Positions 1-64,000 of a stretch of 64,000 bases of DNA are shown here, in pieces (position 1 is the stretch's first letter; each line of letters starts with the position of its first letter). The stretch comes from a virus. The position numbers and the translations under genes were made by a program. The notes under the pieces were generated by a model, which saw nothing but the letters and a program-made list of their open reading frames with translations, was not told the origin of the DNA and did not search any database. The stretch is taken from positions 10,996 through 74,995 of the IMG/VR virus record IMGVR_UViG_3300023184_000090, one strand, 5' to 3'.

Positions 1-1224
1 AATGCACTCAGCGGTTATGTGGCGCTTGAGCAAGTGCGTGTGAATGGTGTCGATGGTGCTACGAAACAGCGCAAAGATAAGTACCTTGCGGTCGGTCTCT
101 TCCAAGATTTCTTCAAGCACACCCAAGCGCGGCGCGGAATCAAACTCAACCACTTCCTTCTCGTCTGTGTAGGCCGCACCACAACTGATTTGAAGCAGCT
201 TGCTTAACGCTGCTGCCGCGTTGACTGCGGTGATCGTCTCGCCTGCGGCTTGCACAAGCATGCGGTCTTTGAGGAGGTTGTAGTACTTGGCTTGCTGCGG
301 AGTCAGCGGCACTTCGCGTGTGGTGGTCAGCACAGGCGGTAGGTCTAAGCACTGCGCTTTGGTATAGCGTATGGCGGGTTGCAATGCTTCGTGTACCAGA
401 TCGGGGGCGTTGGCTTTCGGTGCCCACTTGTACATGGTGACTTTGTTCATCACCATATCGCGCCATCCTGTGTACAGGCGGGGGATTCCATCGGGGTTGA
501 CAATTTTGGCCAGCCCGTATGCGTCAGCAGGAGACTGAGACGCTGGTGTGCCTGTCATCATCCACACATGTGTGTCGGCCCTGAGTATGGACTTGAGCGC
601 CTTCCAGCGCTTAGTGGTCACGGTCTTGTACGCGTTGGCCTCGTCCACGATCACCAGATCAAAGCGCCCGTCATTGACGATCTCAGACGCAATCAGATTT
701 AACCCATCGTAGTTGGCAATTACGAATTCGTAATCTTGCTGAATCATCTCAATGCGGCGGCTAGCCTGCGCGTGGTGCGCGATGATGGCAGAGCGATGGA
801 TGACGCTGCTGTTCAGGTCTGCCAACCATGCGGACTGCATGATGGATAGTGGGCACAGCACCAACACCCGTCGAATGTCTCCGCGCTGCATCAAGTAGTC
901 TGCTGCCCATAGTGCGGATAGCGTCTTGCCTGTGCCGGGTTCGGAGAACACAAACGCTTTGCGGTGCATGGTCAAAAACGCAGAGGTCTCTTTCTGGTGC
1001 GCCATGGGTTTGTACCTACCGGGCCAAGCGTAGCGCCGCATGATGGGCGAAGGCACGTCTTTGACGCCAAGGTTCTTCAACACACGCGCTTCATCCAACC
1101 CCCAGAAGACTGCAACATCAAAGCCGCCATCAGCGCGAGGCATGATTTTGGACTTGGGGATGATGCTGTACTTCTGAGGGTTTCGTGTGCTAAACAGTAG
1201 TGCTTTGTCTTCTATGATTTGCAT
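1..1224 (-). CDS. SNF2-family helicase, N-terminal part, runs off the left edge (second phage)
   Basis: Not in the ORF track. Manual translation from ATG 1224 gives MQIIEDKALL...FSEPGTGKT (Walker A)...LVIVDEAN (Walker B)...MMTGTP (motif III), open to position 1. Confidence 0.9.
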   Translation of the reverse strand, partial: MQIIEDKALLFSTRNPQKYSIIPKSKIMPRADGGFDVAVFWGLDEARVLKNLGVKDVPSPIMRRYAWPGRYKPMAHQKETSAFLTMHRKAFVFSEPGTGKTLSALWAADYLMQRGDIRRVLVLCPLSIMQSAWLADLNSSVIHRSAIIAHHAQASRRIEMIQQDYEFVIANYDGLNLIASEIVNDGRFDLVIVDEANAYKTVTTKRWKALKSILRADTHVWMMTGTPASQSPADAYGLAKIVNPDGIPRLYTGWRDMVMNKVTMYKWAPKANAPDLVHEALQPAIRYTKAQCLDLPPVLTTTREVPLTPQQAKYYNLLKDRMLVQAAGETITAVNAAAALSKLLQISCGAAYTDEKEVVEFDSAPRLGVLEEILEETDRKVLIFALFRSTIDTIHTHLLKRHITAECI

Positions 1225-1237
1225 TTGCTTCTCGGGT

Positions 1238-1348
1238 TTATTTTTTTCCTAACGCCAACGCTTGTTCCCAAACGAATTTGGCTACGTTGTAGCCGATGAG
1301 CTGTTGCTCTGCGACCGTTATGGTTCGCCACCATTCCTCGAATGTCAT
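1238..1348 (-). CDS. small hypothetical protein
   Basis: MTFEEWW...; same GAGAAGCAAATG RBS/start context as the helicase at 1224. Confidence 0.55.
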   Translation of the reverse strand: MTFEEWWRTITVAEQQLIGYNVAKFVWEQALALGKK

Positions 1349-1361
1349 TTGCTTCTCCCGG

Positions 1362-1622
1362 TTATTTAACTGAGTGGTTTTTTGTCCTGTCAAAAGTGCG
1401 GTTTGCTGATGCGGGTTTAACTCGGAGGTTGCTACGCACCGTCTTGCCGCCTTTGTCCACAGGCTTCTTGTGATCGACATCCATGCCATCGCCCTTGTGC
1501 ACTAAGCCTTCTTTCATCAGCATAGCGCGGGCTTTGTTTCGCTCGGCCCGCTTCTTGATGACATCTGGTTTCTGCGCATATGCGGGATAGGTGTCGCGGT
1601 CTTTGGGGTTTTTGTAAGGCAT
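1362..1622 (-). CDS. HNH endonuclease-like protein
   Basis: KGDGMDVDHKKP..KGG....NLRV....NR HNH-like motif. Confidence 0.7.
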   Translation of the reverse strand: MPYKNPKDRDTYPAYAQKPDVIKKRAERNKARAMLMKEGLVHKGDGMDVDHKKPVDKGGKTVRSNLRVKPASANRTFDRTKNHSVK

Positions 1623-1633
1623 GAATGTTCCTT

Positions 1634-2299
1634 TCAATGTTTCGGGTTGTATTCACAGGTTTTCACAGGACACCACGGGCACAAGCCAGAGGACTTGGGG
1701 TTCCAGGTATTTGAAGCGAAGCACGCTTCAAGTCTGGCTACGCGCTCACGGTAATTCCACCACTCAGCATCCGCCTCTTCCACGGCCATGCTGTGCTTGA
1801 CCATATCATTTTTCACCACAAATAACAACGCCGAACTGACCTTGCGTATGTGGGGGAAGTGCTTGAACACCATGAGGGACATGAGCTTTAGCTGGTCACG
1901 ATCTGGGTATTTGTTGTTGCCTGTTTTGTAGTCAACTACCCGCGCTGTAAGGTTGTCGTCATCAATGATGAGCAAGTCCGCAATGCCCCTGACCCACCTG
2001 CCCTTGTTGTTGAAGTCACACGGTTGCAAGTCCGGGGTGATGCCCATCTCGTACTCGCACAGCTTCCTGCCCGGCATGGCCATCAACACATCAAGCGCTC
2101 CCTTGGCGTAGTCAAACTCAGGGGGCAGGGGTACGCCATCTCGAATGTAGACCTCCGCCGCTGTGTGAAAGCTTGTGCCGTAGCGTGTTGCCTCAGTCTC
2201 CTGAAATGGGAAGTTGTTGAGCACATTTACCTCATGGTATCTGCGGGGGCATCCCTCAAAGTTTTTAAGAGCGCTGTGGCTCCACGTTACAGGTTTCAT
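1634..2299 (-). CDS. Cas4-like PD-(D/E)XK exonuclease (second phage)
   Basis: WSHS...CPRRY, GIADL, VDYKTG, C-terminal CPWCP..C. Confidence 0.85.
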   Translation of the reverse strand: MKPVTWSHSALKNFEGCPRRYHEVNVLNNFPFQETEATRYGTSFHTAAEVYIRDGVPLPPEFDYAKGALDVLMAMPGRKLCEYEMGITPDLQPCDFNNKGRWVRGIADLLIIDDDNLTARVVDYKTGNNKYPDRDQLKLMSLMVFKHFPHIRKVSSALLFVVKNDMVKHSMAVEEADAEWWNYRERVARLEACFASNTWNPKSSGLCPWCPVKTCEYNPKH

Positions 2300-2607
2300 T
2301 AGAACTTCGCGCTTTCTATGGCTATGGCAAGTCGGGCAGCAAAACCTTCTACAAAGTCTTCTCGGCTGTTGAGTTTGTGTTCACGCATGTCCTCAAGGAT
2401 GGCGTGCACCAGCTCATGCCAGAAAGTTTCTTTGACCGAATCAGATGAGAACTTACGTCCTGTTCGGTTGTTTCGCAAACCAATCTTTATTTTCTGTTCG
2501 GGGTAGTGAACGCGCCCCATGTCGTCTTTGTCCTTCATGGCCTCGACAACCTCGACGCTGTACCACTTGTCCCCCACCTTTACTTTCTTTGGTAGTGTTA
2601 TTTCCAT
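2299..2607 (-). CDS. small HExxH metallopeptidase-like protein
   Basis: FWHELVHAIL motif followed by EDFVE. Confidence 0.6.
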   Translation of the reverse strand: MEITLPKKVKVGDKWYSVEVVEAMKDKDDMGRVHYPEQKIKIGLRNNRTGRKFSSDSVKETFWHELVHAILEDMREHKLNSREDFVEGFAARLAIAIESAKF

Positions 2608-4575
2608 TTAGTTCTTTGCTTCTCCATATCTACGGTGAGCACCACCGTCAGCGGACAAGGGAATACCGGGCATGTAGCGCGGCTCCATAGTCATTTGCTC
2701 CAAGACCCAAGTCTTGGCTTCTTCCACCTCACTGTCGGGCACGAGCGCAATCAACTCATCGTGCACCGTTCCAACCACGGGGTATCTTTTACCAACCCGC
2801 AGCATTCCGTCTGTCATTACCACCCGCGCCAAAGCTTGGGTCACATTGTTCGTTATCTTTCCAGCATACAACTTGGTAGCGTCTGGCCCGTATACCCACT
2901 GGCTCCTACCTTTTTCGTCTTTGACTTCACGCAGATCGGGATAGCGCAAGCACATCCCGTTTGGCAATTCTATTTCACCCTGCCTGAATGTCAAGCACTT
3001 GTAGGTGTGTTCTTTGCCGTTGACCAAAGCCGACACCAACAGGCTGGAACACATATCCCAGAATGAGACAACAGGATACGCCGTGGCACGGTATATATCA
3101 ATGATGCGTTTGGCTGCAATGGCATGGTGCACCAACTCCGAGTAGGTGCATGTGTGCGGGATATCCCTTAGTTTGATCTCTGTTTCAGACCACTCCAAGA
3201 ACCGCTCGGCCATGTCCTTGTTGACGTTCAACGCTTTAGAGAACGCCCTCTCGTAGCGAACTGGGGGAGCCCCAAGGAACCCCGTAAGAAGCTGTGACGC
3301 GAACGATGACCAGCCCAGCCCATAGCCGCAGCCCAGTAACGCGCTCTTCGCAGATTGCCGCAGGTCAGGATGAGACTCTTTAGTAAGGCCGGGTATGTTG
3401 AACATCTGACTTCCGAATGCCGCGTAAGGGTCACCTCCAGCCCGGAAGATGTTGAGCATATCGTCGTAGTCAGCCAGCCACGCGAGTACTCGCGGCTCAA
3501 TCTGCGAGAGGTCGCCAACGACGAGTTGGTAGCCATCGGGAGCCATAATCGCTTTACGTAAGAACGACTTTCGCTTGAGGTTTTGCATGTTGATGGCGGA
3601 CCCCTTAGCTGCCGTCCATCGCCCAGTCTGAGCACCGTAGTACGAAAGCGGAACCGGGAGCGCACCTCGTTGACTGATGTCAAGGAAGCGCTGCGCTCTT
3701 GTCCGTTCGGTTGTTGACTTGACCTTGAGACGTGCTTCACAAAGGAGCGCAACATCTTCGTTTGCACCATTGAGGAGGGCTTGGAAGAGCGCATCGTCTT
3801 TTGCCAGGGCAAGCGTTTGCTTACCCGTGGTCTTACTGATTTTTGTCGGGGGTGTAACGCCAAGGTTTGTAAGAATCTGCGCAAACTTAGGGTTTGACGC
3901 CAGCTCAGACTCATTGATGTTAAGACGTTGTAGTAGCGCTTCACGTATGTTTCCTTCCTCTGTTAATGCTTGTATCAACATCTTCTGGTCAAGCTGCAAC
4001 ACTGGGCGTGTGTACATCTTGAGCGTCATGTCAATAAGGTGTAGTTCCGATCTAGGGTAGCCCGCCGAGAGTCTTTCGAATATTTGTTCGCAGAGATATA
4101 CGTCGTGCTGACAATACTCAGCAAGTTCTCTTTCTGTCTCAGGCTCAAGGACGGCCAGTCCATCGGTACTATGTACGGCTCTCCCTTTGGGGGGAAGACC
4201 AAAATCTCCTGCCAGTTTGGCGAGGGAATTGCCAACCTCCACGCCGCGTAAAGCTCGTGCCATTGATAGGGTATCAAAGATGAAGACGGGGTGGCAGTTG
4301 TATCGCCACTCAAGAATGGAAATATCGAATTGGGCGTTATGTGCAAGCACGGCGGTTCGTCCCCAGTCGATGCCAGAAAAGTACTCAGATAAATCTGATC
4401 CTCTAACCCATTCAATCGGCTCGTCGCTTCCGAACTCATGTGTACAGGCTCCGAAAGCCACGAACTTATTGTCACGTATGTACTCCTCGGTTGTCATCTT
4501 GGACAGCGTGTAGTCCTTGCTACTCCATCTTGTTTCAAAGTCGATGCTCAGTATTCTGTCGAATGGTTTACTCAA
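2608..4575 (-). CDS. polA: family A DNA polymerase with 3'-5' exonuclease (second phage; Leu at the position equivalent to E. coli Pol I F762)
   Basis: ExoI DFET, ExoII HNAQFD, TGRW, motif A DLSQIEPR, motif B RQSAKSALLGCGYG, motif C VHDE. Confidence 0.95.
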   Translation of the reverse strand: MSKPFDRILSIDFETRWSSKDYTLSKMTTEEYIRDNKFVAFGACTHEFGSDEPIEWVRGSDLSEYFSGIDWGRTAVLAHNAQFDISILEWRYNCHPVFIFDTLSMARALRGVEVGNSLAKLAGDFGLPPKGRAVHSTDGLAVLEPETERELAEYCQHDVYLCEQIFERLSAGYPRSELHLIDMTLKMYTRPVLQLDQKMLIQALTEEGNIREALLQRLNINESELASNPKFAQILTNLGVTPPTKISKTTGKQTLALAKDDALFQALLNGANEDVALLCEARLKVKSTTERTRAQRFLDISQRGALPVPLSYYGAQTGRWTAAKGSAINMQNLKRKSFLRKAIMAPDGYQLVVGDLSQIEPRVLAWLADYDDMLNIFRAGGDPYAAFGSQMFNIPGLTKESHPDLRQSAKSALLGCGYGLGWSSFASQLLTGFLGAPPVRYERAFSKALNVNKDMAERFLEWSETEIKLRDIPHTCTYSELVHHAIAAKRIIDIYRATAYPVVSFWDMCSSLLVSALVNGKEHTYKCLTFRQGEIELPNGMCLRYPDLREVKDEKGRSQWVYGPDATKLYAGKITNNVTQALARVVMTDGMLRVGKRYPVVGTVHDELIALVPDSEVEEAKTWVLEQMTMEPRYMPGIPLSADGGAHRRYGEAKN

Positions 4576-4847
4576 TTCATGGCCTCTTTGGGTGGTGCTT
4601 CACGCATGTTGATGTAGTTAAAGAAGTTGTCCGCTGCCAGCAGCAGCGTGGCGGCATCCATCTCGTTGCAGTTGACCGTGACCACGCTGGCGCTCTCATC
4701 GGTCAGGTCGCCCAGCACAATGACAGCAGCGTGCTTGTCCTCGGCGTAGCACTGGAGCAGTGAGTACACCAGCATTTTGAAATGGTCCTTCTGGGCATCG
4801 GTCATAGATGCCACGCGGCGTTCTATGTCCTCTTGTGTTATTCGCAT
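4572..4847 (-). CDS. hypothetical protein
   Basis: 91-aa ORF tightly overlapping both neighbours. Confidence 0.65.
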   Translation of the reverse strand: MRITQEDIERRVASMTDAQKDHFKMLVYSLLQCYAEDKHAAVIVLGDLTDESASVVTVNCNEMDAATLLLAADNFFNYINMREAPPKEAMN

Positions 4848-5137
4848 AGCAGTTCCTTTAAAGTTTGTTTTACCAATTCAATGTTCTCCTCGTTGATAAC
4901 CAGCGCCGTCCCCCCGGCCTGCTGTATCTTGGCCAACTCCATGTCTTGCAGCGCGGTGGTCTTGCCTTTGCCCGCCTTGCACTCGATGGCGATGAACGTG
5001 CCGAAGTAACAGCAGATGATGTCTGGTATGCCCGCCCTGCCCATGCCGTTTTGCACAGGCGAGAAGTGGTACACCGCGTTGTCGTCAAGCAGCCGCTTGA
5101 CTGCCTTCTTCACTTTGGCTTCGGGGGTCATGGCCAT
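4838..5137 (-). CDS. VRR-NUC nuclease / resolvase (second phage)
   Basis: TPEAKVK...GIPDII...AIECK..KGKTTALQ. Confidence 0.85.
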   Translation of the reverse strand: MAMTPEAKVKKAVKRLLDDNAVYHFSPVQNGMGRAGIPDIICCYFGTFIAIECKAGKGKTTALQDMELAKIQQAGGTALVINEENIELVKQTLKELLCE

Positions 5138-5303
5138 TTTGTTTCCTTCGCTTCTTAAAAAAGTATTTGACTACTTCATAGTCTACGCCGAATCGTTCGG
5201 CAATGGCCCTCATTGACATGCCCTGCTCACGCAACACCAATGCTCGGCGTGCATCAATCAGTGTGGGTTTGCGCCCACTCCCCGGTCTTGCGCCCCCTTT
5301 CAT
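5085..5303 (-). CDS. small HTH DNA-binding protein
   Basis: GGARPGSGRKP AT-hook-like start plus GMSMRAIAERFGV helix-turn-helix. Confidence 0.65.
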   Translation of the reverse strand: MKGGARPGSGRKPTLIDARRALVLREQGMSMRAIAERFGVDYEVVKYFFKKRRKQNGHDPRSQSEEGSQAAA

Positions 5304-5423
5304 GTGTTCTCCTTGAATTGATAATCTTTAAAGACGGTTCCCCTGCTTGCATCGCCTTTCCAGCATTCGTTTACCCATCCCCGCTTGCCTGACTTGTAAG
5401 TACGCCAATGTCCACGAACCTGA
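5297..5423. repeat. exact direct repeat, copy 1 (copy 2 at 63874-64000)
   Basis: 127 identical bases from ctttcatgtgttctcc to cacgaacctga; offset 58,577. Confidence 0.97.
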
Positions 5424-10458: not shown

Positions 10459-12558
10459 ATGCCAATGGGATTTTCGTCTCATATAACACAACCAGATGAA
10501 TTATACAAAACTTTTTTAGCCAATCGCAAATACGATGATAACGACGAGTTTACCTTAGGTTTACAGCTCTTAGACAAGGAGCAAACCAAGCAGCTTTTAG
10601 GGCACACGTATGAATGGTCGGTTAAGATTCCGTACTTTGACGTAGACGGCAAAGATACCGGGTTTGTAAGGGTTAGGTTGTTGACCCCTAAGACTAAGAT
10701 GAAATACTCACAGGCCAGAGCCAGTGGGTCACACATTTATTTTCCGCCTGTAGCGTCATGGCGAACTATCATCAACAATGTAGATGTGCCGATCACCATC
10801 ACTGAAGGCGAGTTTAAAAGCTGGTCGATCACTAAAGCTATAGAAGCCGAGGGCCTGCTTAATTCTTGCATTGGCTTGGCAGGTGTGACAAGTTGGACAA
10901 GCAAGAACGGTGTGCACTTACATCCGGATCTTATGCAAATCATGTGGCAAAAGAAGACAAGCTTCGAGACCAAGCATCGCAAGGTGTACATAGTGTTTGA
11001 CTATGATGGTGCCAAGGAAGACGGCGAGCCAAATGAGCAGGTTGCATTTGCCGAGACAAAGCTGGCAGTGACGTTAAGAGGACTAGGTGCAGAAGTGCAC
11101 CTTTGTCGCGTTGGGCGGTTCGGCCCTGGCAAAGGTAGCAAGTTTGCCATTGATGATCACCTAGATGCAGGCGGTACACTAGGTCAAGTGTTGGCTAGCA
11201 CCTCGGTCATTATGAATGGGATTGACACACTTGATGTAAGGCTGCATGAATTCAGCACTAAGTATGCGTTATACAACGGTGATGTGATTCGTATCGATGA
11301 CGGTCACATCATGCCGTTCCAAAAAGCCAGGATTGACAGTGCCCAGCACATCTATTTGCAACAGGTAACAGTACCAGGCAGAGGCAACCAACCGCCCAAG
11401 ATCACAACACGCGAGATCATCCTGATCGATGAGTACAAGAAGTGGAAGCGTAGATGTGACATCAGGCGCGTTGGTGTGTTTCCGCACTACCAAGGGCTAA
11501 AGATCACACCGGATGGCAACTACAACTACTTGAACAGTTGGCTAAATGAGCCTGTAGACGGTGATGCGCATGCGTATCTGGAGTTTTGTGACTACTTTTT
11601 TAGAGATGAACCAGCATTTGCTGATTATTGGCATGACTGGGTCGCTAACGTGGTGCAATTTCCGCACAGGCGAAACAACACAACACCCCAGTTTGTATCG
11701 AACATTGAAGGCATTGGTAAGTCAGCCGTTGCCGAGTTCATAGCCGAAATGCTAGGCCTTGGTGAACAAGGGCCAGCCATCATCATCGGACCTGACGAGC
11801 TCTTTGGCAACTTTAACGGTATATTTAAGAACAAAATTCTCATAGTGATTAATGAACCAAGCAGTGACCGTGAAGACCACTCAGCCCAGCTAAAGAGCAT
11901 GATCACAGGCAAGGAAATAGCTATCAACAATAAGTATGGTGCTCAATACAACATTGAGAACTACATGAACTTTATATTTACATCTAATAAGCCATACATC
12001 ACTAAGATGGGCAACAATGCCAGACGCGAAGCCATCTATAAGCCAGGCAGTCTATCCAACACAGAAACGCACCCCAAAGTAGTCAACCTTATGGCATGGG
12101 CACGGCATGAACGCGGCTTTGGCAAGGTGCTCAACTGGTACTACAACCGAGACATCAGCAACTTTGATCCATCCAAGCCAGCACCTGACACCAAGTACAA
12201 GCAGGTTGCTATATCAGCAGGCCGTAGCCCGATCGAAGCATTTGCCAAAGAACTAAGTGACTGGGTGGTTGATAAGCTTGACGGCTATGCAGCCTTTACG
12301 CCGGCACAGCTGGAGATACTGTGTGAGAAGTGGGGCCATGACAGCCGCGCCAAGTCGCAATACATCAAGAAAGCCTTGCTTAACTATGCCGATCTAGAGT
12401 CAAAACCGGTCAATTTCCAAGGCAAAACGATCAGGCTCACGATTTGCAAAATTACAAATCCGCCAACCAAAAACAGAGATCTGATGAAGCATGGTGCCTT
12501 GAGCAAGATGGCAATTGACACAGACGTTGCTGTACGACAAGAAATAGAGCAAATGTGA
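10459..12558 (+). CDS. primase-helicase (DUF3854/TOPRIM primase plus SF3/D5-like helicase)
   Basis: ITEGEFK and YIVFDYD TOPRIM motifs; EGIGKS Walker A, IVINE Walker B, FTSN motif C. Confidence 0.88.
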   Translation: MPMGFSSHITQPDELYKTFLANRKYDDNDEFTLGLQLLDKEQTKQLLGHTYEWSVKIPYFDVDGKDTGFVRVRLLTPKTKMKYSQARASGSHIYFPPVASWRTIINNVDVPITITEGEFKSWSITKAIEAEGLLNSCIGLAGVTSWTSKNGVHLHPDLMQIMWQKKTSFETKHRKVYIVFDYDGAKEDGEPNEQVAFAETKLAVTLRGLGAEVHLCRVGRFGPGKGSKFAIDDHLDAGGTLGQVLASTSVIMNGIDTLDVRLHEFSTKYALYNGDVIRIDDGHIMPFQKARIDSAQHIYLQQVTVPGRGNQPPKITTREIILIDEYKKWKRRCDIRRVGVFPHYQGLKITPDGNYNYLNSWLNEPVDGDAHAYLEFCDYFFRDEPAFADYWHDWVANVVQFPHRRNNTTPQFVSNIEGIGKSAVAEFIAEMLGLGEQGPAIIIGPDELFGNFNGIFKNKILIVINEPSSDREDHSAQLKSMITGKEIAINNKYGAQYNIENYMNFIFTSNKPYITKMGNNARREAIYKPGSLSNTETHPKVVNLMAWARHERGFGKVLNWYYNRDISNFDPSKPAPDTKYKQVAISAGRSPIEAFAKELSDWVVDKLDGYAAFTPAQLEILCEKWGHDSRAKSQYIKKALLNYADLESKPVNFQGKTIRLTICKITNPPTKNRDLMKHGALSKMAIDTDVAVRQEIEQM

Positions 12559-53781: not shown

Positions 53782-54040
53782 GTTTAGCCTTTTTGCAGTA
53801 GTTGTGTTTAGTGACATAGTAACGATAGTGCCGTACGCTTCTATTGAGCGCTTGCTTTCTAAGATCGAATTCTCCACATACGTCAACTTGTCGTTCAAGG
53901 TGAACAACAACTCGACCTAATGCCTTGATTGTGCGACTTTTCCAGTTAGGGTTGTCCTTCACAAATCGGCTAAAGATTAGTTTCCGCCTCTTTAGCGTCA
54001 TTTTCGACAGAGAACTTTGAATGTCGAACCAAGTGTTCAT
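53753..54040 (-). CDS. basic hypothetical protein
   Basis: ATGA-coupled to the ThyX-like gene. Confidence 0.55.
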   Translation of the reverse strand: MNTWFDIQSSLSKMTLKRRKLIFSRFVKDNPNWKSRTIKALGRVVVHLERQVDVCGEFDLRKQALNRSVRHYRYYVTKHNYCKKAKHEKDILDKS

Positions 54041-54960
54041 CGATGTGATTTCTCGATAGCATCAATCTGGTTCAACAAATTTTCACGAATCTTTAGATAG
54101 ACATCGCTACCTGCGTATTCATCCCTACCTTGCGTGTGGTAGAACTGTTCTTCACACCAGTCGAAGTTGTCGTTCTTTGCATTAGGCGGAAAGATGTTTG
54201 TTTTGCCTTTGGCTGATTGACGTTGGTAGAACACATCCGGTTTACGGAAGTCCACCAACCCCTTAAGAAACGGATACTTCTTAAGAACCTCCAGCCATAG
54301 CTTCATGGCAATGATGTTGTCTACAGTCGTTTGAATCTGTTCATCACCGCGCATAATGCAGTAGCCAATAAGATCTTTGATAGTGCAGCGAACCATATAA
54401 AAATGCTCAAAATTTCTAGGCATAATTGTACGAGTATCCAAGCCATGTACAAGCCCACTATCAAGCATATCCACATAAAGATCCCTAGCCATAGTAGTGA
54501 TTTGCTTATAGCGGTCATAGAAGTCCTTGTTAGCCATGATGCTTGGTTTGACCATCACACGGTCATCTCGCATATCCCGGTCACCATGCACCTGGGCTGC
54601 AAAACTAAACAACCGATGCCTAATTAGGTGAGTTGTATCAACCATGTCCATGCCATTCACGGACCAAGTGATGTTGATGGTTTCCATGGCGGTTGGCAAT
54701 AGTTCGTACTTAAACAGCTCATCAACAGTTTGATCAATGTCAGCCTCTGGGAATTCCCACTGAATCTTGTCATTCCAGGTGTTCATTAAGAACACGGAGA
54801 TCGTCTTCCTGAATTCCGGAATAGTAGGTGCATGGATGATCTGCACGTCGATGTTTTCCAGCTGGTTGACAAACTCTATTGGCCCAGGCTGTTTGCCGAA
54901 CTTAAGAGTTGTATGCATCTTTTGGAGATGCGGCATTTGTGATTTAGTGACTTTAGGCAT
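54037..54960 (-). CDS. thyX: divergent ThyX-fold (flavin-dependent thymidylate synthase-like) enzyme
   Basis: HLIRHRLFSF, Y..ML.SG....DTRTIMP, L..Y...RGD..IQ align with ThyX; the RHRx7S serine is absent. Confidence 0.8.
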   Translation of the reverse strand: MPKVTKSQMPHLQKMHTTLKFGKQPGPIEFVNQLENIDVQIIHAPTIPEFRKTISVFLMNTWNDKIQWEFPEADIDQTVDELFKYELLPTAMETINITWSVNGMDMVDTTHLIRHRLFSFAAQVHGDRDMRDDRVMVKPSIMANKDFYDRYKQITTMARDLYVDMLDSGLVHGLDTRTIMPRNFEHFYMVRCTIKDLIGYCIMRGDEQIQTTVDNIIAMKLWLEVLKKYPFLKGLVDFRKPDVFYQRQSAKGKTNIFPPNAKNDNFDWCEEQFYHTQGRDEYAGSDVYLKIRENLLNQIDAIEKSHR

Positions 54961-55234
54961 TTTTTGTTTCCTTGTTGAGTTGAATTTCTACTAGACGTGC
55001 GTAACCTGCAATGTCGGTCCAGCTATCCACATGTGTGGGTGATACAGCCAACCGAGAAAGTTTCATGGCGATTTTGGAGAGATAAATAACATGGACAGGA
55101 TCCATCTCAGCATTGTGCTGTTTGCGATACCTGTTAGTTATATTTTCAAGGATAACCGCTTCTAATGAAACACCCTCAAAAAAATCCCCGTAAACCTCAC
55201 CTCTCTGCTCTAAGACTTGATCTGTCGTTTTCAT
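54953..55234 (-). CDS. DUF6378-like small helical protein (possible NTP pyrophosphatase)
   Basis: LEQRGEVYGDF...KLSRL....HVDSWTDIAGYARL. Confidence 0.7.
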   Translation of the reverse strand: MKTTDQVLEQRGEVYGDFFEGVSLEAVILENITNRYRKQHNAEMDPVHVIYLSKIAMKLSRLAVSPTHVDSWTDIAGYARLVEIQLNKETKNA

Positions 55235-55743
55235 GGCACCACCTTATAAGGCTCAAGTTTTTCCTCAAGTTTAGATAGCCGTTTCAAGCTATTCTCGTGG
55301 ACATCCACCATGTAACCGCCGTTACCTAGGCCGATCTCATTGGCAGAATACTGAAGGCATTGCAAAGCATCGGCATAGTGAACAGCCAGTGCTTCCGGTG
55401 TGTCCTCGTGGTACAGGTCACAAAATTCTCTAAGTGCATCTGGAAACCCTTGTACGATTTCTTGTTCAGCCAGTTTAAGGGCTTTTGCAACTATAGGAAA
55501 GTTCTTCTTGACCAGGTGGTTTACATCAGAGATTTCCATTTCAGCCAGATCATGACAAATGGCAATCTTGACTGCCTTGTCAACATCAAACTTGTAGTCT
55601 GCTGATAGCATCATGACGCCTAGTGCCACGAAGAAACTGTGTGTTGCCACACTTTCCTGATGTATAACAGGCTTCATGCTATACCGTTTGGTGTGCTCAA
55701 GCGTGTAGCTTTGCATGAAGAAAGCAAAATCACCTTTATTCAT
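55231..55743 (-). CDS. HD-domain phosphohydrolase (YfbR/DatZ-like deoxynucleotidase)
   Basis: KRY...ESVATHS, CHDLAE...SD, YADALQ. Confidence 0.88.
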   Translation of the reverse strand: MNKGDFAFFMQSYTLEHTKRYSMKPVIHQESVATHSFFVALGVMMLSADYKFDVDKAVKIAICHDLAEMEISDVNHLVKKNFPIVAKALKLAEQEIVQGFPDALREFCDLYHEDTPEALAVHYADALQCLQYSANEIGLGNGGYMVDVHENSLKRLSKLEEKLEPYKVVP

Positions 55744-56197
55744 AGCTAATGCTTTCCTCTGACCAGTTTTTACGAACAAACGTGCCAGTGCTTACAATGT
55801 GTTCTATGGCAGTATCCAGTTGTTTAAAGTCTCTGACCACTGAGCCTGATGCGGCCAGTACGAGGTTAAACTTTTGACCAGGTTCACCACCTAGCCATAC
55901 ATAGATAATAGGTATGCCTTTTGCATAGCACCAGCCGGCTTCAAACATTGTGCCAGGGTCTTTGCCGTCAGTAACGCAAATGGTTAAGTCGGTTTTGCGC
56001 AGTGCCACCAGGTTGATGTCTAAGACTTCTTCTGGCGTGGTTTTGCCAGGTGTGTACATACATTCATCTTTTGGACTGAAGTACTTTAGTACGCTAAGGC
56101 CCAAGTTGGTTTTGATTTGTTCAATGATGCGCACCTGTTCAGGATTGAAGAAGGGGCCTGCTATGTAGATGTATGGGTATCGTGAGATTGGTTGCAT
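55736..56197 (-). CDS. nucleoside 2-deoxyribosyltransferase / dNMP N-glycosidase family protein
   Basis: YIAGPFF, FSPK, DGKDPGTMFEAG (catalytic Glu), FNLVL. Confidence 0.88.
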   Translation of the reverse strand: MQPISRYPYIYIAGPFFNPEQVRIIEQIKTNLGLSVLKYFSPKDECMYTPGKTTPEEVLDINLVALRKTDLTICVTDGKDPGTMFEAGWCYAKGIPIIYVWLGGEPGQKFNLVLAASGSVVRDFKQLDTAIEHIVSTGTFVRKNWSEESISYE

Positions 56198-61151: not shown

Positions 61152-61526
61152 CTATTTGCGTGATTTAGTTAACGAGATTTCCCACACATCAGCAGTTGTA
61201 GACCCGGGAATAATCTCACCGGCTTCCCAACGATCCTTGAAAGCGGTGCTGCTGAGTCTTTTATGCAGCAAGTCAAAGCTTTTTGTAGCCGTGACATACG
61301 CATAAAATTGATCCCAATCCGTGATGGTTGGGTGTGTCTTTTTGGCCATAGTAACTGAATGGCCACGTTCAGATGCGGCCTTCATGGTGCCTGCTTCATT
61401 CATAGCATGCATGATGTCAGCTTCCAATGTTGCTGCCTTCTTAGACAGCTCTGAATCCTGTTCAGACAGTTCCTTACGCTGAGTCTTGATCATTGCAAGC
61501 TCATCAATTAGATCATTTAGCTTCAT
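61152..61526 (-). CDS. conserved replication-module coiled-coil protein
   Basis: DWDQFYAYV.....DLL.KR.S......IPG. Confidence 0.7.
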   Translation of the reverse strand: MKLNDLIDELAMIKTQRKELSEQDSELSKKAATLEADIMHAMNEAGTMKAASERGHSVTMAKKTHPTITDWDQFYAYVTATKSFDLLHKRLSSTAFKDRWEAGEIIPGSTTADVWEISLTKSRK

Positions 61527-61986
61527 AAGGCACCTCTAACAGTTCAGGGTCGTACACATGCACATTTAGAATTGCTTCGCTAAACATGGCCTTGGCTACC
61601 TTGAATGACTGATCCCACCTAGGGTTGCTATTCATGATAGTCACATGAGCCGTGATGCCTGATTGGATGATCATAGATGCGCATTGGCTACATGCATGCA
61701 TAGGCCAAGTGTAGATTGTGCAATCTTTCAAAGACTGCTTTGCAAACAAAATGGCATTGGCTTCGGCATGCAAGGTCATCATCAACTTAGTGTTGCGATC
61801 AAATAGCCGCTCCTGGTGATCTTGTATGCCACGAGGAAAACCATTGAAGCCAGTACTTACGATTTGATTGTCTGGGCTAACAATCACAGCACCGCACTTT
61901 GTGGATGGATCCTTAGACCAGGTTGACACAAGCTTAGCCAGTTGCAAATAGCGTATGTGCCACTTGTTAGGCGTAAGCATGATCAT
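61513..61986 (-). CDS. dCMP deaminase
   Basis: WSKDPSTKCGAVI, GFNGFP, HAEANA, CSQC..IIQSGI. Confidence 0.92.
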   Translation of the reverse strand: MIMLTPNKWHIRYLQLAKLVSTWSKDPSTKCGAVIVSPDNQIVSTGFNGFPRGIQDHQERLFDRNTKLMMTLHAEANAILFAKQSLKDCTIYTWPMHACSQCASMIIQSGITAHVTIMNSNPRWDQSFKVAKAMFSEAILNVHVYDPELLEVPYEAK

Positions 61987-62710: not shown

Positions 62711-62764
62711 TGTTTACTGAGTAAACAATTGCATTATACAATGCTTTCTAAAAAGTAAACACTT
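62711..62764 (-). promoter_or_regulatory. promoter of the replication operon with downstream palindrome
   Basis: Minus strand reads GTGTTTACTTT-TTAGAAAGCATTG-TATAAT-GCAAT-TGTTTACT-C-AGTAAACA. Confidence 0.8.
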
Positions 62765-63161
62765 ATTTGCGATTATTTTCAAATAATTTTAGCGCAATTA
62801 GCTCTTCAGGGCCTGTCCATCCTTCAGGCTTTTTGGCGTCTTGTTGTGTGCCGCGGCTTGTAGCGCCTGGGACTTTTTGCATGTTGCAATTGTGGACTAT
62901 GTCCAGGATCTCAGGTAATGGCAGACCCATGTGATGAGCACATCCCATTGTGACATAAGCAAGATCTGCAATTGCATCGGCAGCATCTACAAGATCGCCT
63001 TTTTCATGAGCCTTAAGAAGCTCGGACAGTTCTTCCATGAGGAACCGTGCATAGAAGCTGATGTCAGCAGGTTGCAATAGCTGAGGTGTTGTTGAGACTG
63101 GCAAGTTAAGCTTTTGCCGAAACTGTAGGACTTTGTTAAAGATGTCTTGGTTCATGGTCAT
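62763..63161 (-). CDS. MazG-like (PRA-PH family) nucleotide pyrophosphohydrolase
   Basis: MEELSEL...DAADAIADLAYV..G...VH.CNM.K...KPEGW..P. Confidence 0.85.
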   Translation of the reverse strand: MTMNQDIFNKVLQFRQKLNLPVSTTPQLLQPADISFYARFLMEELSELLKAHEKGDLVDAADAIADLAYVTMGCAHHMGLPLPEILDIVHNCNMQKVPGATSRGTQQDAKKPEGWTGPEELIALKLFENNRK

Positions 63162-63394
63162 TTCCATAAGTGTTGCAGTGATTTAGAGTCGTAGGCTTTT
63201 TGAAATTCTTTTGGTTCAGGTTTGTTGGTTCTCTCCTTGTATGGTTTTTGCGGAATGGTGCCTGTGAACTGTACTTCAAGGGACTTAAAATTGTAGTAAC
63301 ACAGGTTGCATGTCCTGCGTCGATACACTTTGTCTTCCCATTTAGTTGTTTCTATCACCGACGTTTTTGTGCCTTCACACTTGGGGCACTTCAT
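63158..63394 (-). CDS. NrdR-like Zn-ribbon protein
   Basis: MKCPKC....SVIET.....RRRTC..C...F.SLE resembles the NrdR N-terminal DNA-binding ribbon; no ATP cone. Confidence 0.7.
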   Translation of the reverse strand: MKCPKCEGTKTSVIETTKWEDKVYRRRTCNLCYYNFKSLEVQFTGTIPQKPYKERTNKPEPKEFQKAYDSKSLQHLWK

Positions 63395-63731: not shown

Positions 63732-63880
63732 GCCACACCCCTCATCTCCCAGCCTGCAATGAAGTAATTCCAACGCCCTTGCATAGCAGGGTTGGTGTAC
63801 TTGTCGCCAGTCATGTGCAAATCATCCTCTGTGTAGCCCTTGGAGGCCATCAGTGCATGGAATACTTGTCGTGCTTTCAT
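63728..63880 (-). CDS. small hypothetical protein
   Basis: MKARQVFHALM...RWNYFIAGWEMRGVA; ATGA-coupled. Confidence 0.6.
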   Translation of the reverse strand: MKARQVFHALMASKGYTEDDLHMTGDKYTNPAMQGRWNYFIAGWEMRGVA

Positions 63881-64000
63881 GTGTTCTCCTTGAATTGATA
63901 ATCTTTAAAGACGGTTCCCCTGCTTGCATCGCCTTTCCAGCATTCGTTTACCCATCCCCGCTTGCCTGACTTGTAAGTACGCCAATGTCCACGAACCTGA
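63874..64000. repeat. exact direct repeat, copy 2 (3' end of the gene at 5300-5965)
   Basis: identical to 5297-5423 up to the window edge. Confidence 0.97.

Follow-up and report, generated by a model that had tools for sequence, protein, structure and literature searches.

A long ThyX-like flavoprotein gene in a lake phage and its possible role in nucleotide-pool remodelling

What does a phage protein do that retains the flavin site of the flavin-dependent thymidylate synthase ThyX, while its catalytic set has been replaced? The question was raised by a gene in a stretch of viral DNA of 64,000 nucleotides (nt) (hereafter the window; positions 10,996 to 74,995 of IMG/VR record IMGVR_UViG_3300023184_000090), which encodes a ThyX-like flavoprotein of 307 amino acids (aa). 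A first-pass annotation, made from the sequence without database searches, had proposed that flavin binding is kept and that the substrate or chemistry has changed. The first part stood, the flavin and substrate residues being retained and the catalytic set replaced in the alignments; the second gained comparative support from a separate clade, co-residence with canonical thymidylate synthases and a linked gene module, and the "folate-independent" chemistry and "different base" offered with it are guesses. On the sequences compared, the best explanation is that the gene encodes a functional protein of a sister clade of ThyX restricted to viruses, termed long ThyX-like here. That it is a neofunctionalised paralogue acting in a nucleotide-pool remodelling module and supplying a modified pyrimidine nucleotide is given a probability of about 0.5.

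Fold and active site of the ThyX-like protein

The gene and the parts of its product are listed below, with the equivalent residues of Thermotoga maritima ThyX in brackets.

54037-54960, minus strand: ThyX-like flavoprotein gene, 307 aa; intact open reading frame (ORF), assigned from Pfam Thy1, an AlphaFold2 (AF2) model, VIA-align and the ratio of nonsynonymous to synonymous substitution rates (dN/dS)
54880-54960, minus strand: N-terminal extension, residues 1-27, ahead of the first ThyX strand (structural alignments begin at 28-33)
54697-54699, minus strand: Leu88, replacing the folate/flavin-stacking His (His53), mapped by MAFFT and hhalign (L87/L88)
54613-54621, minus strand: RHR flavin/nucleotide motif R114-H115-R116 (R78-H79-R80), from phmmer, profile and hhalign alignments
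54568-54597, minus strand: rebuilt active-site loop A122-Q-V124-H-G126-D127-R128-D129-M-R131, replacing E86-L-S88-G-R90-Y91, from the alignments
54430-54432, minus strand: R177, the substrate arginine (Arg147), from profile alignment to T. maritima "ARIVLP"
54349-54351, minus strand: R204, the pyrimidine-activating arginine (Arg174), from profile alignment to "LRADSHAQ"
54040-54240, minus strand: family-specific C-terminal extension, residues 241-307 (about 65 aa), from VIA alignments

Aligned to the Pfam profile Thy1 (PF02511), a check proposed in the first-pass annotation, residues 73-215 passed weakly with 41.9 bits against a cut-off of 24.8 (E 1.2e-10), covering model positions 36-176 of 191, and the NCBIfam equivalog cut-off for thyX (TIGR02170) was failed, with 26.8 against 87.9 bits. 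The AF2 model, built from an alignment of 73 relatives, had a predicted local distance difference test (pLDDT) score of 96.3 and a predicted template modelling (pTM) score of 0.92, and Foldseek matched it to the ThyX fold with an E value of 8e-11. By VIA-align it was superposed on ThyX of Mycobacterium tuberculosis (3gwc; Z 17.1, root mean square deviation (rmsd) 2.8 A, 208 residues paired), on that of T. maritima with flavin adenine dinucleotide (FAD) and deoxyuridine monophosphate (dUMP) bound (1o26; Z 16.1), and on the Streptomyces paralogue PolB (Z 16.0), and hhalign against a canonical ThyX alignment gave a probability of 99.2% (E 1.2e-19). A ThyX fold is thus predicted with confidence for the window protein, its core spanning model residues of about 28 to 240. 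The protein resembles ThyX (also called FDTS, EC 2.1.1.148; TM0449 and the M. tuberculosis enzyme) in its fold, at Z 16-17 and rmsd 2.6-2.8 A over some 200 residues, in passing Pfam Thy1, and in keeping the equivalents of RHR, S30, T55, E58, R147 and R174; it differs in being only 14-17% identical, in failing the thyX equivalog, in having H53, S88, R90 and Y91 replaced and both extensions added, and in its separate clade, different neighbourhood and co-occurrence with true ThyX.

Residues were mapped by ungapped phmmer alignment to M. tuberculosis ThyX, by profile search against the PDB, by hhalign and by MAFFT, with canonical phage ThyX aligned to T. maritima ThyX, and residue counts were taken over 73 family members. 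These alignments bore out the earlier statement that the RHR motif and the arginine equivalents are kept: R114 was present in 73 and R116 in 68 of the members, and R177 and R204 were each Arg in 72. Also retained were T61, T90, E93 and S119, the equivalents of S30, T55, E58 and S83. Arg174 has a pyrimidine-activating role in ThyX (PMC8316439). With the flavin-contact residues and both substrate arginines retained in the alignments, the predicted flavin pocket is intact.

The alterations described at His53, Gln75, Ser88 and the Arg-Tyr pair were likewise recovered by the alignment tools. Leu occupied the His53 position in 65 of the members, Q75 is replaced by H111 and R74 by T110, and within the loop E86, S88, G89, R90 and Y91 correspond to A122, V124, H125, G126 and D127. 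The RHR of the RHRx7S motif is therefore present with Val124 at its serine position, where the family has Cys in 41, Val in 10 and Ser in 8 members. The HAQxEIR motif, which the annotation had considered altered, is changed at H178 (Q208) and E182 (T212) and keeps the Gln of "HAQ" (Q210). The family consensus of the loop is SFSAQC[TSH]GD[RK]DxR, with Gly126 in 52, Asp127 in 60, Arg or Lys128 in 52 and Asp129 in 49 members, among sequences only about 20% identical.

The first-pass annotation had allowed that such substitutions might be common among verified ThyX enzymes, and this was not what was found. Both S88 and R90 were present in all four solved ThyX proteins aligned (T. maritima, Thermus thermophilus, M. 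tuberculosis and Corynebacterium glutamicum), and in 19 canonical sequences, picked from the canonical ThyX closest to the ThyX-like family, S88 was invariant and H53 and R90 were at least 90% conserved. In ThyX, each of the replacements S88A, R90A and Y91A makes methylene transfer two to three orders of magnitude slower, and H53 stacks on the folate or the reduced flavin (PMC8316439, PMC11940539). As judged from these alignments, the substitutions are beyond ordinary ThyX variation. An atypical C. glutamicum ThyX (3fnn/3ge9), which the depositors' titles describe as not required for thymidylate synthesis and which has Phe for Y91, is a comparable case; unlike the window protein, it is cellular and keeps S88, R90 and the canonical length.

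The N- and C-terminal extensions noted earlier were confirmed by the AF2 model and VIA-align, which leave about 27 and 65 aa outside the ThyX core. In the MAFFT alignment the canonical sequences begin at the column of window residue 37 or so, and most structural alignments stop near residue 240, some also matching a short stretch, ending at 292-299, to the C-terminal end of the ThyX chain. The C-terminal extension was modelled at pLDDT 96-99, it contains Y245, P259, F273 and R279, which the family as a whole conserves, and its length is 67-118 aa in all core lineages versus 2-40 aa in canonical ThyX.

The family and its co-residence with canonical thymidylate synthases

A search for proteins of near-equal length gave 226 matches, the 120 listed being 62-94% identical and all metagenomic, and a profile search of 1.84 billion representatives gave 473 clusters (50% identity) at E <=1e-3, with 53 at <=1e-30. 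The family proteins are about 290-350 aa long and occur commonly in the lake metagenomes of many studies. Of 50,697 phage records, that of Geobacillus phage GR1 was the only one with a family member, at 36-45% identity. Scanned as a DNA pattern, FSAQC[ST][GA]D[RK]DxR had no match in 185,579 species genomes, such scans being narrow, and a second pattern gave five matches in the same genomes, all of them family members on contigs of metagenome-assembled genomes (MAGs). These five contigs (L244-L248), of 8-94 kb, are labelled Bacteroidales, Bacillales, Ruminococcus, Clostridia and Methanobacteriota; since all are MAG contigs, they probably represent prophages or phage DNA that was binned. The clade thus appears almost purely viral, with no cellular home seen in the pattern scans. 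Its members are labelled "FAD-dependent thymidylate synthase" in the databases, Protein Atlas likewise giving a generic family label only, and a literature search on ThyX-like proteins and paralogues, phages, Ndt and GR1 found no description of the clade; the sequences are already deposited under the generic label, and the clade itself is without a description in the literature searched.

In a quick tree with midpoint root, the ThyX-like family formed one side of a branch with a Shimodaira-Hasegawa-like approximate likelihood ratio (SH-aLRT) support of 96, with canonical ThyX on the other. Along the tree the loop changed stepwise, from S-x-R-Y in canonical ThyX through G-G-R-D in intermediate lineages to C-[TS]-G-D-[RK]-D in the core family, and Leu for His53 and the C-terminal extension arose along the same path. 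Two fused forms were observed among the metagenome representatives: P0122, with a C-terminal HNH/His-Me endonuclease domain after the ThyX-like domain, and P0148, with a weakly matching GT2-like domain (22.1 bits, under the cut-off) N-terminal to the ThyX-like domain.

At 24 loci the ThyX-like gene and a canonical ThyX gene were located 2-7 kb apart. Among 43 whole records, both genes were found in 12, including five of the 22 that are at least 90% complete, and one further nearly complete record had the ThyX-like gene together with a full ThyA. A canonical ThyX or ThyA is co-resident in eight of 23 core lineages. The second copy matched T. maritima ThyX with E 4e-38 and had every motif intact, and because the co-resident copies fall in the canonical clade, it represents an old paralogue and not a recent duplicate. 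In a lineage that also bears canonical ThyX, the ThyX-like gene had a dN/dS of 0.066, compared with about 0.04 in the window lineage; purifying selection on the clade is strong.

Such coexistence has a precedent in PolB, a ThyX paralogue of Streptomyces that methylates uridine monophosphate (UMP) and dUMP for polyoxin, coexists with a housekeeping ThyX and is the only characterised neofunctionalised ThyX paralogue (PMC5954106). PolB (4p5a/4p5b) resembles the window protein in structural score and as a case of neofunctionalisation. It was a structural match only, missing from the sequence matches of the window protein in phmmer and in the profile search against the PDB. It differs in being bacterial, in its length of about 240 aa and in its closeness to canonical phage ThyX (E 2e-26 for 4p5a), whereas the phage family is viral and far more diverged, with a rebuilt loop, an extension and a phage replication context.

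The nucleotide-pool module and the proposed function

Upstream of the ThyX-like gene, in the order Ndt-like, HD/YfbR-like, DUF6378 and ThyX-like, the window has reading frames that overlap or abut, and two further genes of nucleotide metabolism were found.

54953-55234, minus strand: DUF6378 gene, 93 aa (Pfam DUF6378, 34.5 bits); its stop overlaps the ThyX-like start
55231-55779, minus strand: HD-domain gene like the 5'-deoxynucleotidases of YfbR/HDDC2 type (Pfam HD_3, 63 bits; YfbR-like, 54 bits)
55736-56197, minus strand: gene like Ndt-type nucleoside 2-deoxyribosyltransferases (Pfam Nuc_deoxyrib_tr, 47 bits)
61513-61986, minus strand: deoxycytidine monophosphate (dCMP) deaminase gene, a member of the same leftward block (Pfam dCMP_cyt_deam_1, 68 bits)
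62763-63167, minus strand: MazG/PRA-PH-type nucleoside triphosphate (NTP) pyrophosphohydrolase gene (Pfam PRA-PH, 57 bits; PHROG nucleotide pyrophosphohydrolase, 94 bits)

The HD-like protein matched 2cqz (E 3e-9) and also YfbR (2paq) in the PDB, and the Ndt-like protein, aligned to NDT 6evs, retains the DxGTxxExG motif. DUF6378 had no significant relative in the PDB; its invariant pattern is R-x3-YG ... K-x2-R-x4-P-x-H-x-D-x-W-x-D. The idea that it is a cryptic MazG-type pyrophosphatase was rejected, hhalign giving a probability of 0.2% against the neighbouring dUTPase_2/MazG-like proteins.

The neighbours of the ThyX-like genes were clustered over 203 loci in 34 lineages, with family counts taken over 23 lineages, and were compared with the neighbours of canonical phage ThyX at 74 loci in 46 lineages. 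An Ndt-type gene was a neighbour in 16 of the 23 ThyX-like lineages and in none of the 46 canonical ones, an HD-type nucleotidase in 12 versus none, an all-alpha dUTPase_2/MazG-like pyrophosphatase, which is often a fusion with an NT5C-type nucleotidase, in 17 versus one, and DUF6378 in six versus none; the lineages in this comparison are not fully independent, and it weighs against the proposed function that the control relied on hidden Markov models derived from neighbours of the family itself, which could overlook strongly divergent Ndt or HD subtypes close to canonical ThyX. The module was found on unrelated replication backbones, with PolA and with PolIII-alpha, and it recurs in phage GR1. 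The ThyX-like protein is considered a neofunctionalised paralogue on the grounds that its clade coexists with canonical ThyX and is specifically linked to Ndt-type, 5'-deoxynucleotidase and NTP pyrophosphatase genes.

In the mechanism proposed for it, a pyrimidine deoxynucleoside monophosphate (dNMP) would be stacked on the reduced flavin and a one-carbon unit moved to its C5, the Gly126-Asp127-Arg128-Asp129 loop taking over the task of Ser88/Arg90/Tyr91 and His53 in canonical ThyX. Asp127/Arg128 may form a permuted acid pair, and folate, if used at all, would be bound differently, perhaps via the new C-terminal extension. The pyrophosphatase and nucleotidase would drain a canonical deoxynucleoside triphosphate (dNTP) or dNMP, and the ThyX-like enzyme would deliver a C5-modified pyrimidine dNMP for phage DNA, the candidate products being 5-methyl- or 5-hydroxymethyl-dCMP, or 5-hydroxymethyl-dUMP. 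Such a scheme would be the flavin-fold counterpart of gp56 plus gp42, beside td and cd, in phage T4. T4 has the dCMP hydroxymethylase gp42, of the ThyA fold, together with the dCTPase gp56 and td. By analogy, both systems would place a synthase-fold paralogue beside an ordinary synthase, a dCMP deaminase and an all-alpha NTP pyrophosphatase; gp42 differs in its ThyA fold and cysteine nucleophile from the flavin protein of ThyX fold considered here. The full form of the idea is put forward tentatively: it holds that the clade makes a non-canonical DNA pyrimidine (such as 5-methyl- or 5-hydroxymethyl-dC, or 5-hydroxymethyl-dU) by a flavin-dependent route hitherto overlooked, that Ndt, nucleotidase and pyrophosphatase purge the canonical nucleotide, and that the genomes of abundant lake and marine phages and of GR1 are modified.

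Several observations weigh against neofunctionalisation and fit a divergent but plain synthase of deoxythymidine monophosphate (dTMP) from dUMP, possibly with another reductant or one-carbon donor, which is a possible though not the favoured explanation. Since 27 of the 43 sampled records (22 of the 43 being at least 90% complete) had no Thy1 or ThyA match besides the ThyX-like gene, a role as sole dTMP synthase fits them, and most complete family genomes lack another thymidylate synthase. The window phage itself has a dCMP deaminase in the same block, which could supply the dUMP, and has neither ThyA nor a second Thy1 gene, as is also the case in its complete relatives G001 and G002; no match to PF00303, the ThyA fold, was found in its genome. 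The window phage also encodes neither a dNMP kinase nor a modification enzyme such as a glycosyltransferase, and a kinase and a glycosyltransferase are likewise absent from these relatives. The dUTPase_2-like pyrophosphatases adjoining the ThyX-like gene in many lineages would suit dTMP synthesis as well, and neighbours acting on sugars are limited to single lineages. The ThyX fold and the flavin and substrate arginine equivalents are retained, and with R147 and R174 kept, ordinary chemistry may survive if D127-R128 replaces the R90-Y91 acid pair. Loss of the folate site need not abolish dTMP formation either, because T. maritima ThyX is able to use formaldehyde directly, bypassing folate (PMC8316439). 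What speaks against a plain dTMP synthase is that near-invariant and kinetically important ThyX residues are lost, that in the lineages with a co-resident canonical ThyX or ThyA the ThyX-like gene is still under purifying selection, that ThyA and ThyX are anticorrelated in jumbo phages (PMC7824862), and that the module as such is absent from the canonical control lineages.

The prominence of Ndt-type genes, never found with canonical ThyX in the control, brings to mind pairs like MilA/MilB or that of bacimethrin, in which the ThyX-like enzyme would modify a pyrimidine (deoxy)nucleotide at C5 and the Ndt-type enzyme, with the nucleotidase, would release or transfer the base, giving a free base or nucleoside and not a DNA precursor. 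The Ndt-like protein also matched the cytidine monophosphate (CMP) hydrolase blasticidin M (5vto, E 0.003), and in one lineage (lineage 1) the downstream gene is of the ThyA fold and closest to MilA, a CMP 5-hydroxymethylase (5b6d, E 2e-15), so that a C5-modifying enzyme, an Ndt-fold enzyme and a MilA-like gene adjoining the ThyX-like gene recall such pairs. However, in the PDB the Ndt-like protein matched true deoxyribosyltransferases best, all its matches being weak (E about 1e-3), the genes are located inside DNA replication blocks, and the known pairs belong to actinomycete antibiotic pathways acting on ribonucleotides, in contrast to a ThyX fold in a phage replication context; no use that a phage would have for a modified pyrimidine in free form is known to us, and this explanation is unlikely. 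Loss of the Ser88/Arg90/Tyr91/His53 set would also suit a catalytically dead ThyX-fold binder, for instance one that senses nucleotides or flavin or acts as a structural subunit. This is very improbable, the flavin-contact residues and substrate arginines being near-invariant; conservation of GD[RK]DxR at about 20% identity, together with a dN/dS of about 0.04 in the window lineage, argues that the new loop is a working site and not a decaying one.

To our knowledge, all phage enzymes that pre-modify pyrimidine nucleotides at C5 are of the ThyA fold. If the neofunctional reading is true, a second, flavin-based chemistry would be added to phage nucleotide remodelling, and many database proteins labelled "FAD-dependent thymidylate synthase" (473 clusters, 53 of them at E <=1e-30) are probably mis-annotated; if plain dTMP is made, ThyX chemistry would run without the Ser88/Arg90/Tyr91/His53 set. 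The question is directly testable, there being one cultured member. As the only cultured phage with the family, GR1, whose host is G. stearothermophilus ATCC 10149, is a ready experimental system; at its locus (L003, OK896991.1 19782-38603) the ThyX-like gene lies near genes for Ndt, thioredoxin, HD, a glycosyltransferase, a P-loop NTPase, RNase HI and a nitroreductase/dihydropteridine-reductase-like protein.

A link to sugars as evidence of hydroxymethylation was considered and rejected. The glycosyltransferase and the nitroreductase of GR1 were found only in the GR1 lineage, the GT2-like domain of P0148 is below the cut-off, and an epimerase was found in one lineage. The sugar neighbours are too sparse and therefore give no argument for a hydroxymethyl product. 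The epimerase, an NAD-dependent sugar-nucleotide epimerase/dehydratase (Pfam Epimerase, 144 bits), is encoded directly upstream of the ThyX-like gene at L166:9061-10014. At L129:8982-9908, in a marine lineage that also has canonical ThyX, a fusion of a dUTPase_2-like pyrophosphatase and an NT5C-type 5'-deoxynucleotidase is located directly upstream of the ThyX-like gene.

ThyA-fold genes were observed directly downstream of the ThyX-like gene in other lineages (L112:11039-11947, L100:9597-10340, L167:10983-11525 and L173:11037-11555), and none was present there in the window lineage. Some of the encoded proteins are only 170-200 aa long, the MilA-like form of lineage 1 having 302 aa. The small ORFs had Pfam support in lineages 1 and 15 only, and those in four further lineages, linked by jackhmmer without Pfam backing, were not accepted. 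One record, G012, contains a canonical ThyX, a ThyX-like and a MilA-like gene.

The phage and its chimeric record

An AAGGA ribosome-binding site precedes the ThyX-like ORF by 9 nt. This ORF and the DUF6378 gene upstream of it share 8 nt, the ATG of the one overlapping the stop codon of the other, and the two genes are translationally coupled. A scan for promoters and terminators gave results at chance level or below.

The IMG/VR record containing the window has 74,995 bases. An exact repeat of 127 bp, at window positions 5297-5423 and 63874-64000, the latter being the final 127 bases of the record, indicates that the record is an assembly chimera. As read from the assembly, the real phage is circular and about 58.6 kb long, the initial 16.3 kb of the record coming from another phage. 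The part of that other phage within the window (1-5296) encodes an SNF2 helicase (1-1224), a PD-(D/E)XK nuclease (1634-2299) and a PolA of its own (2608-4575), which has no significant similarity to the PolA of the real phage. The window stretch is present in lake and freshwater metagenomes from 18 studies, and the phage is a lake dweller.

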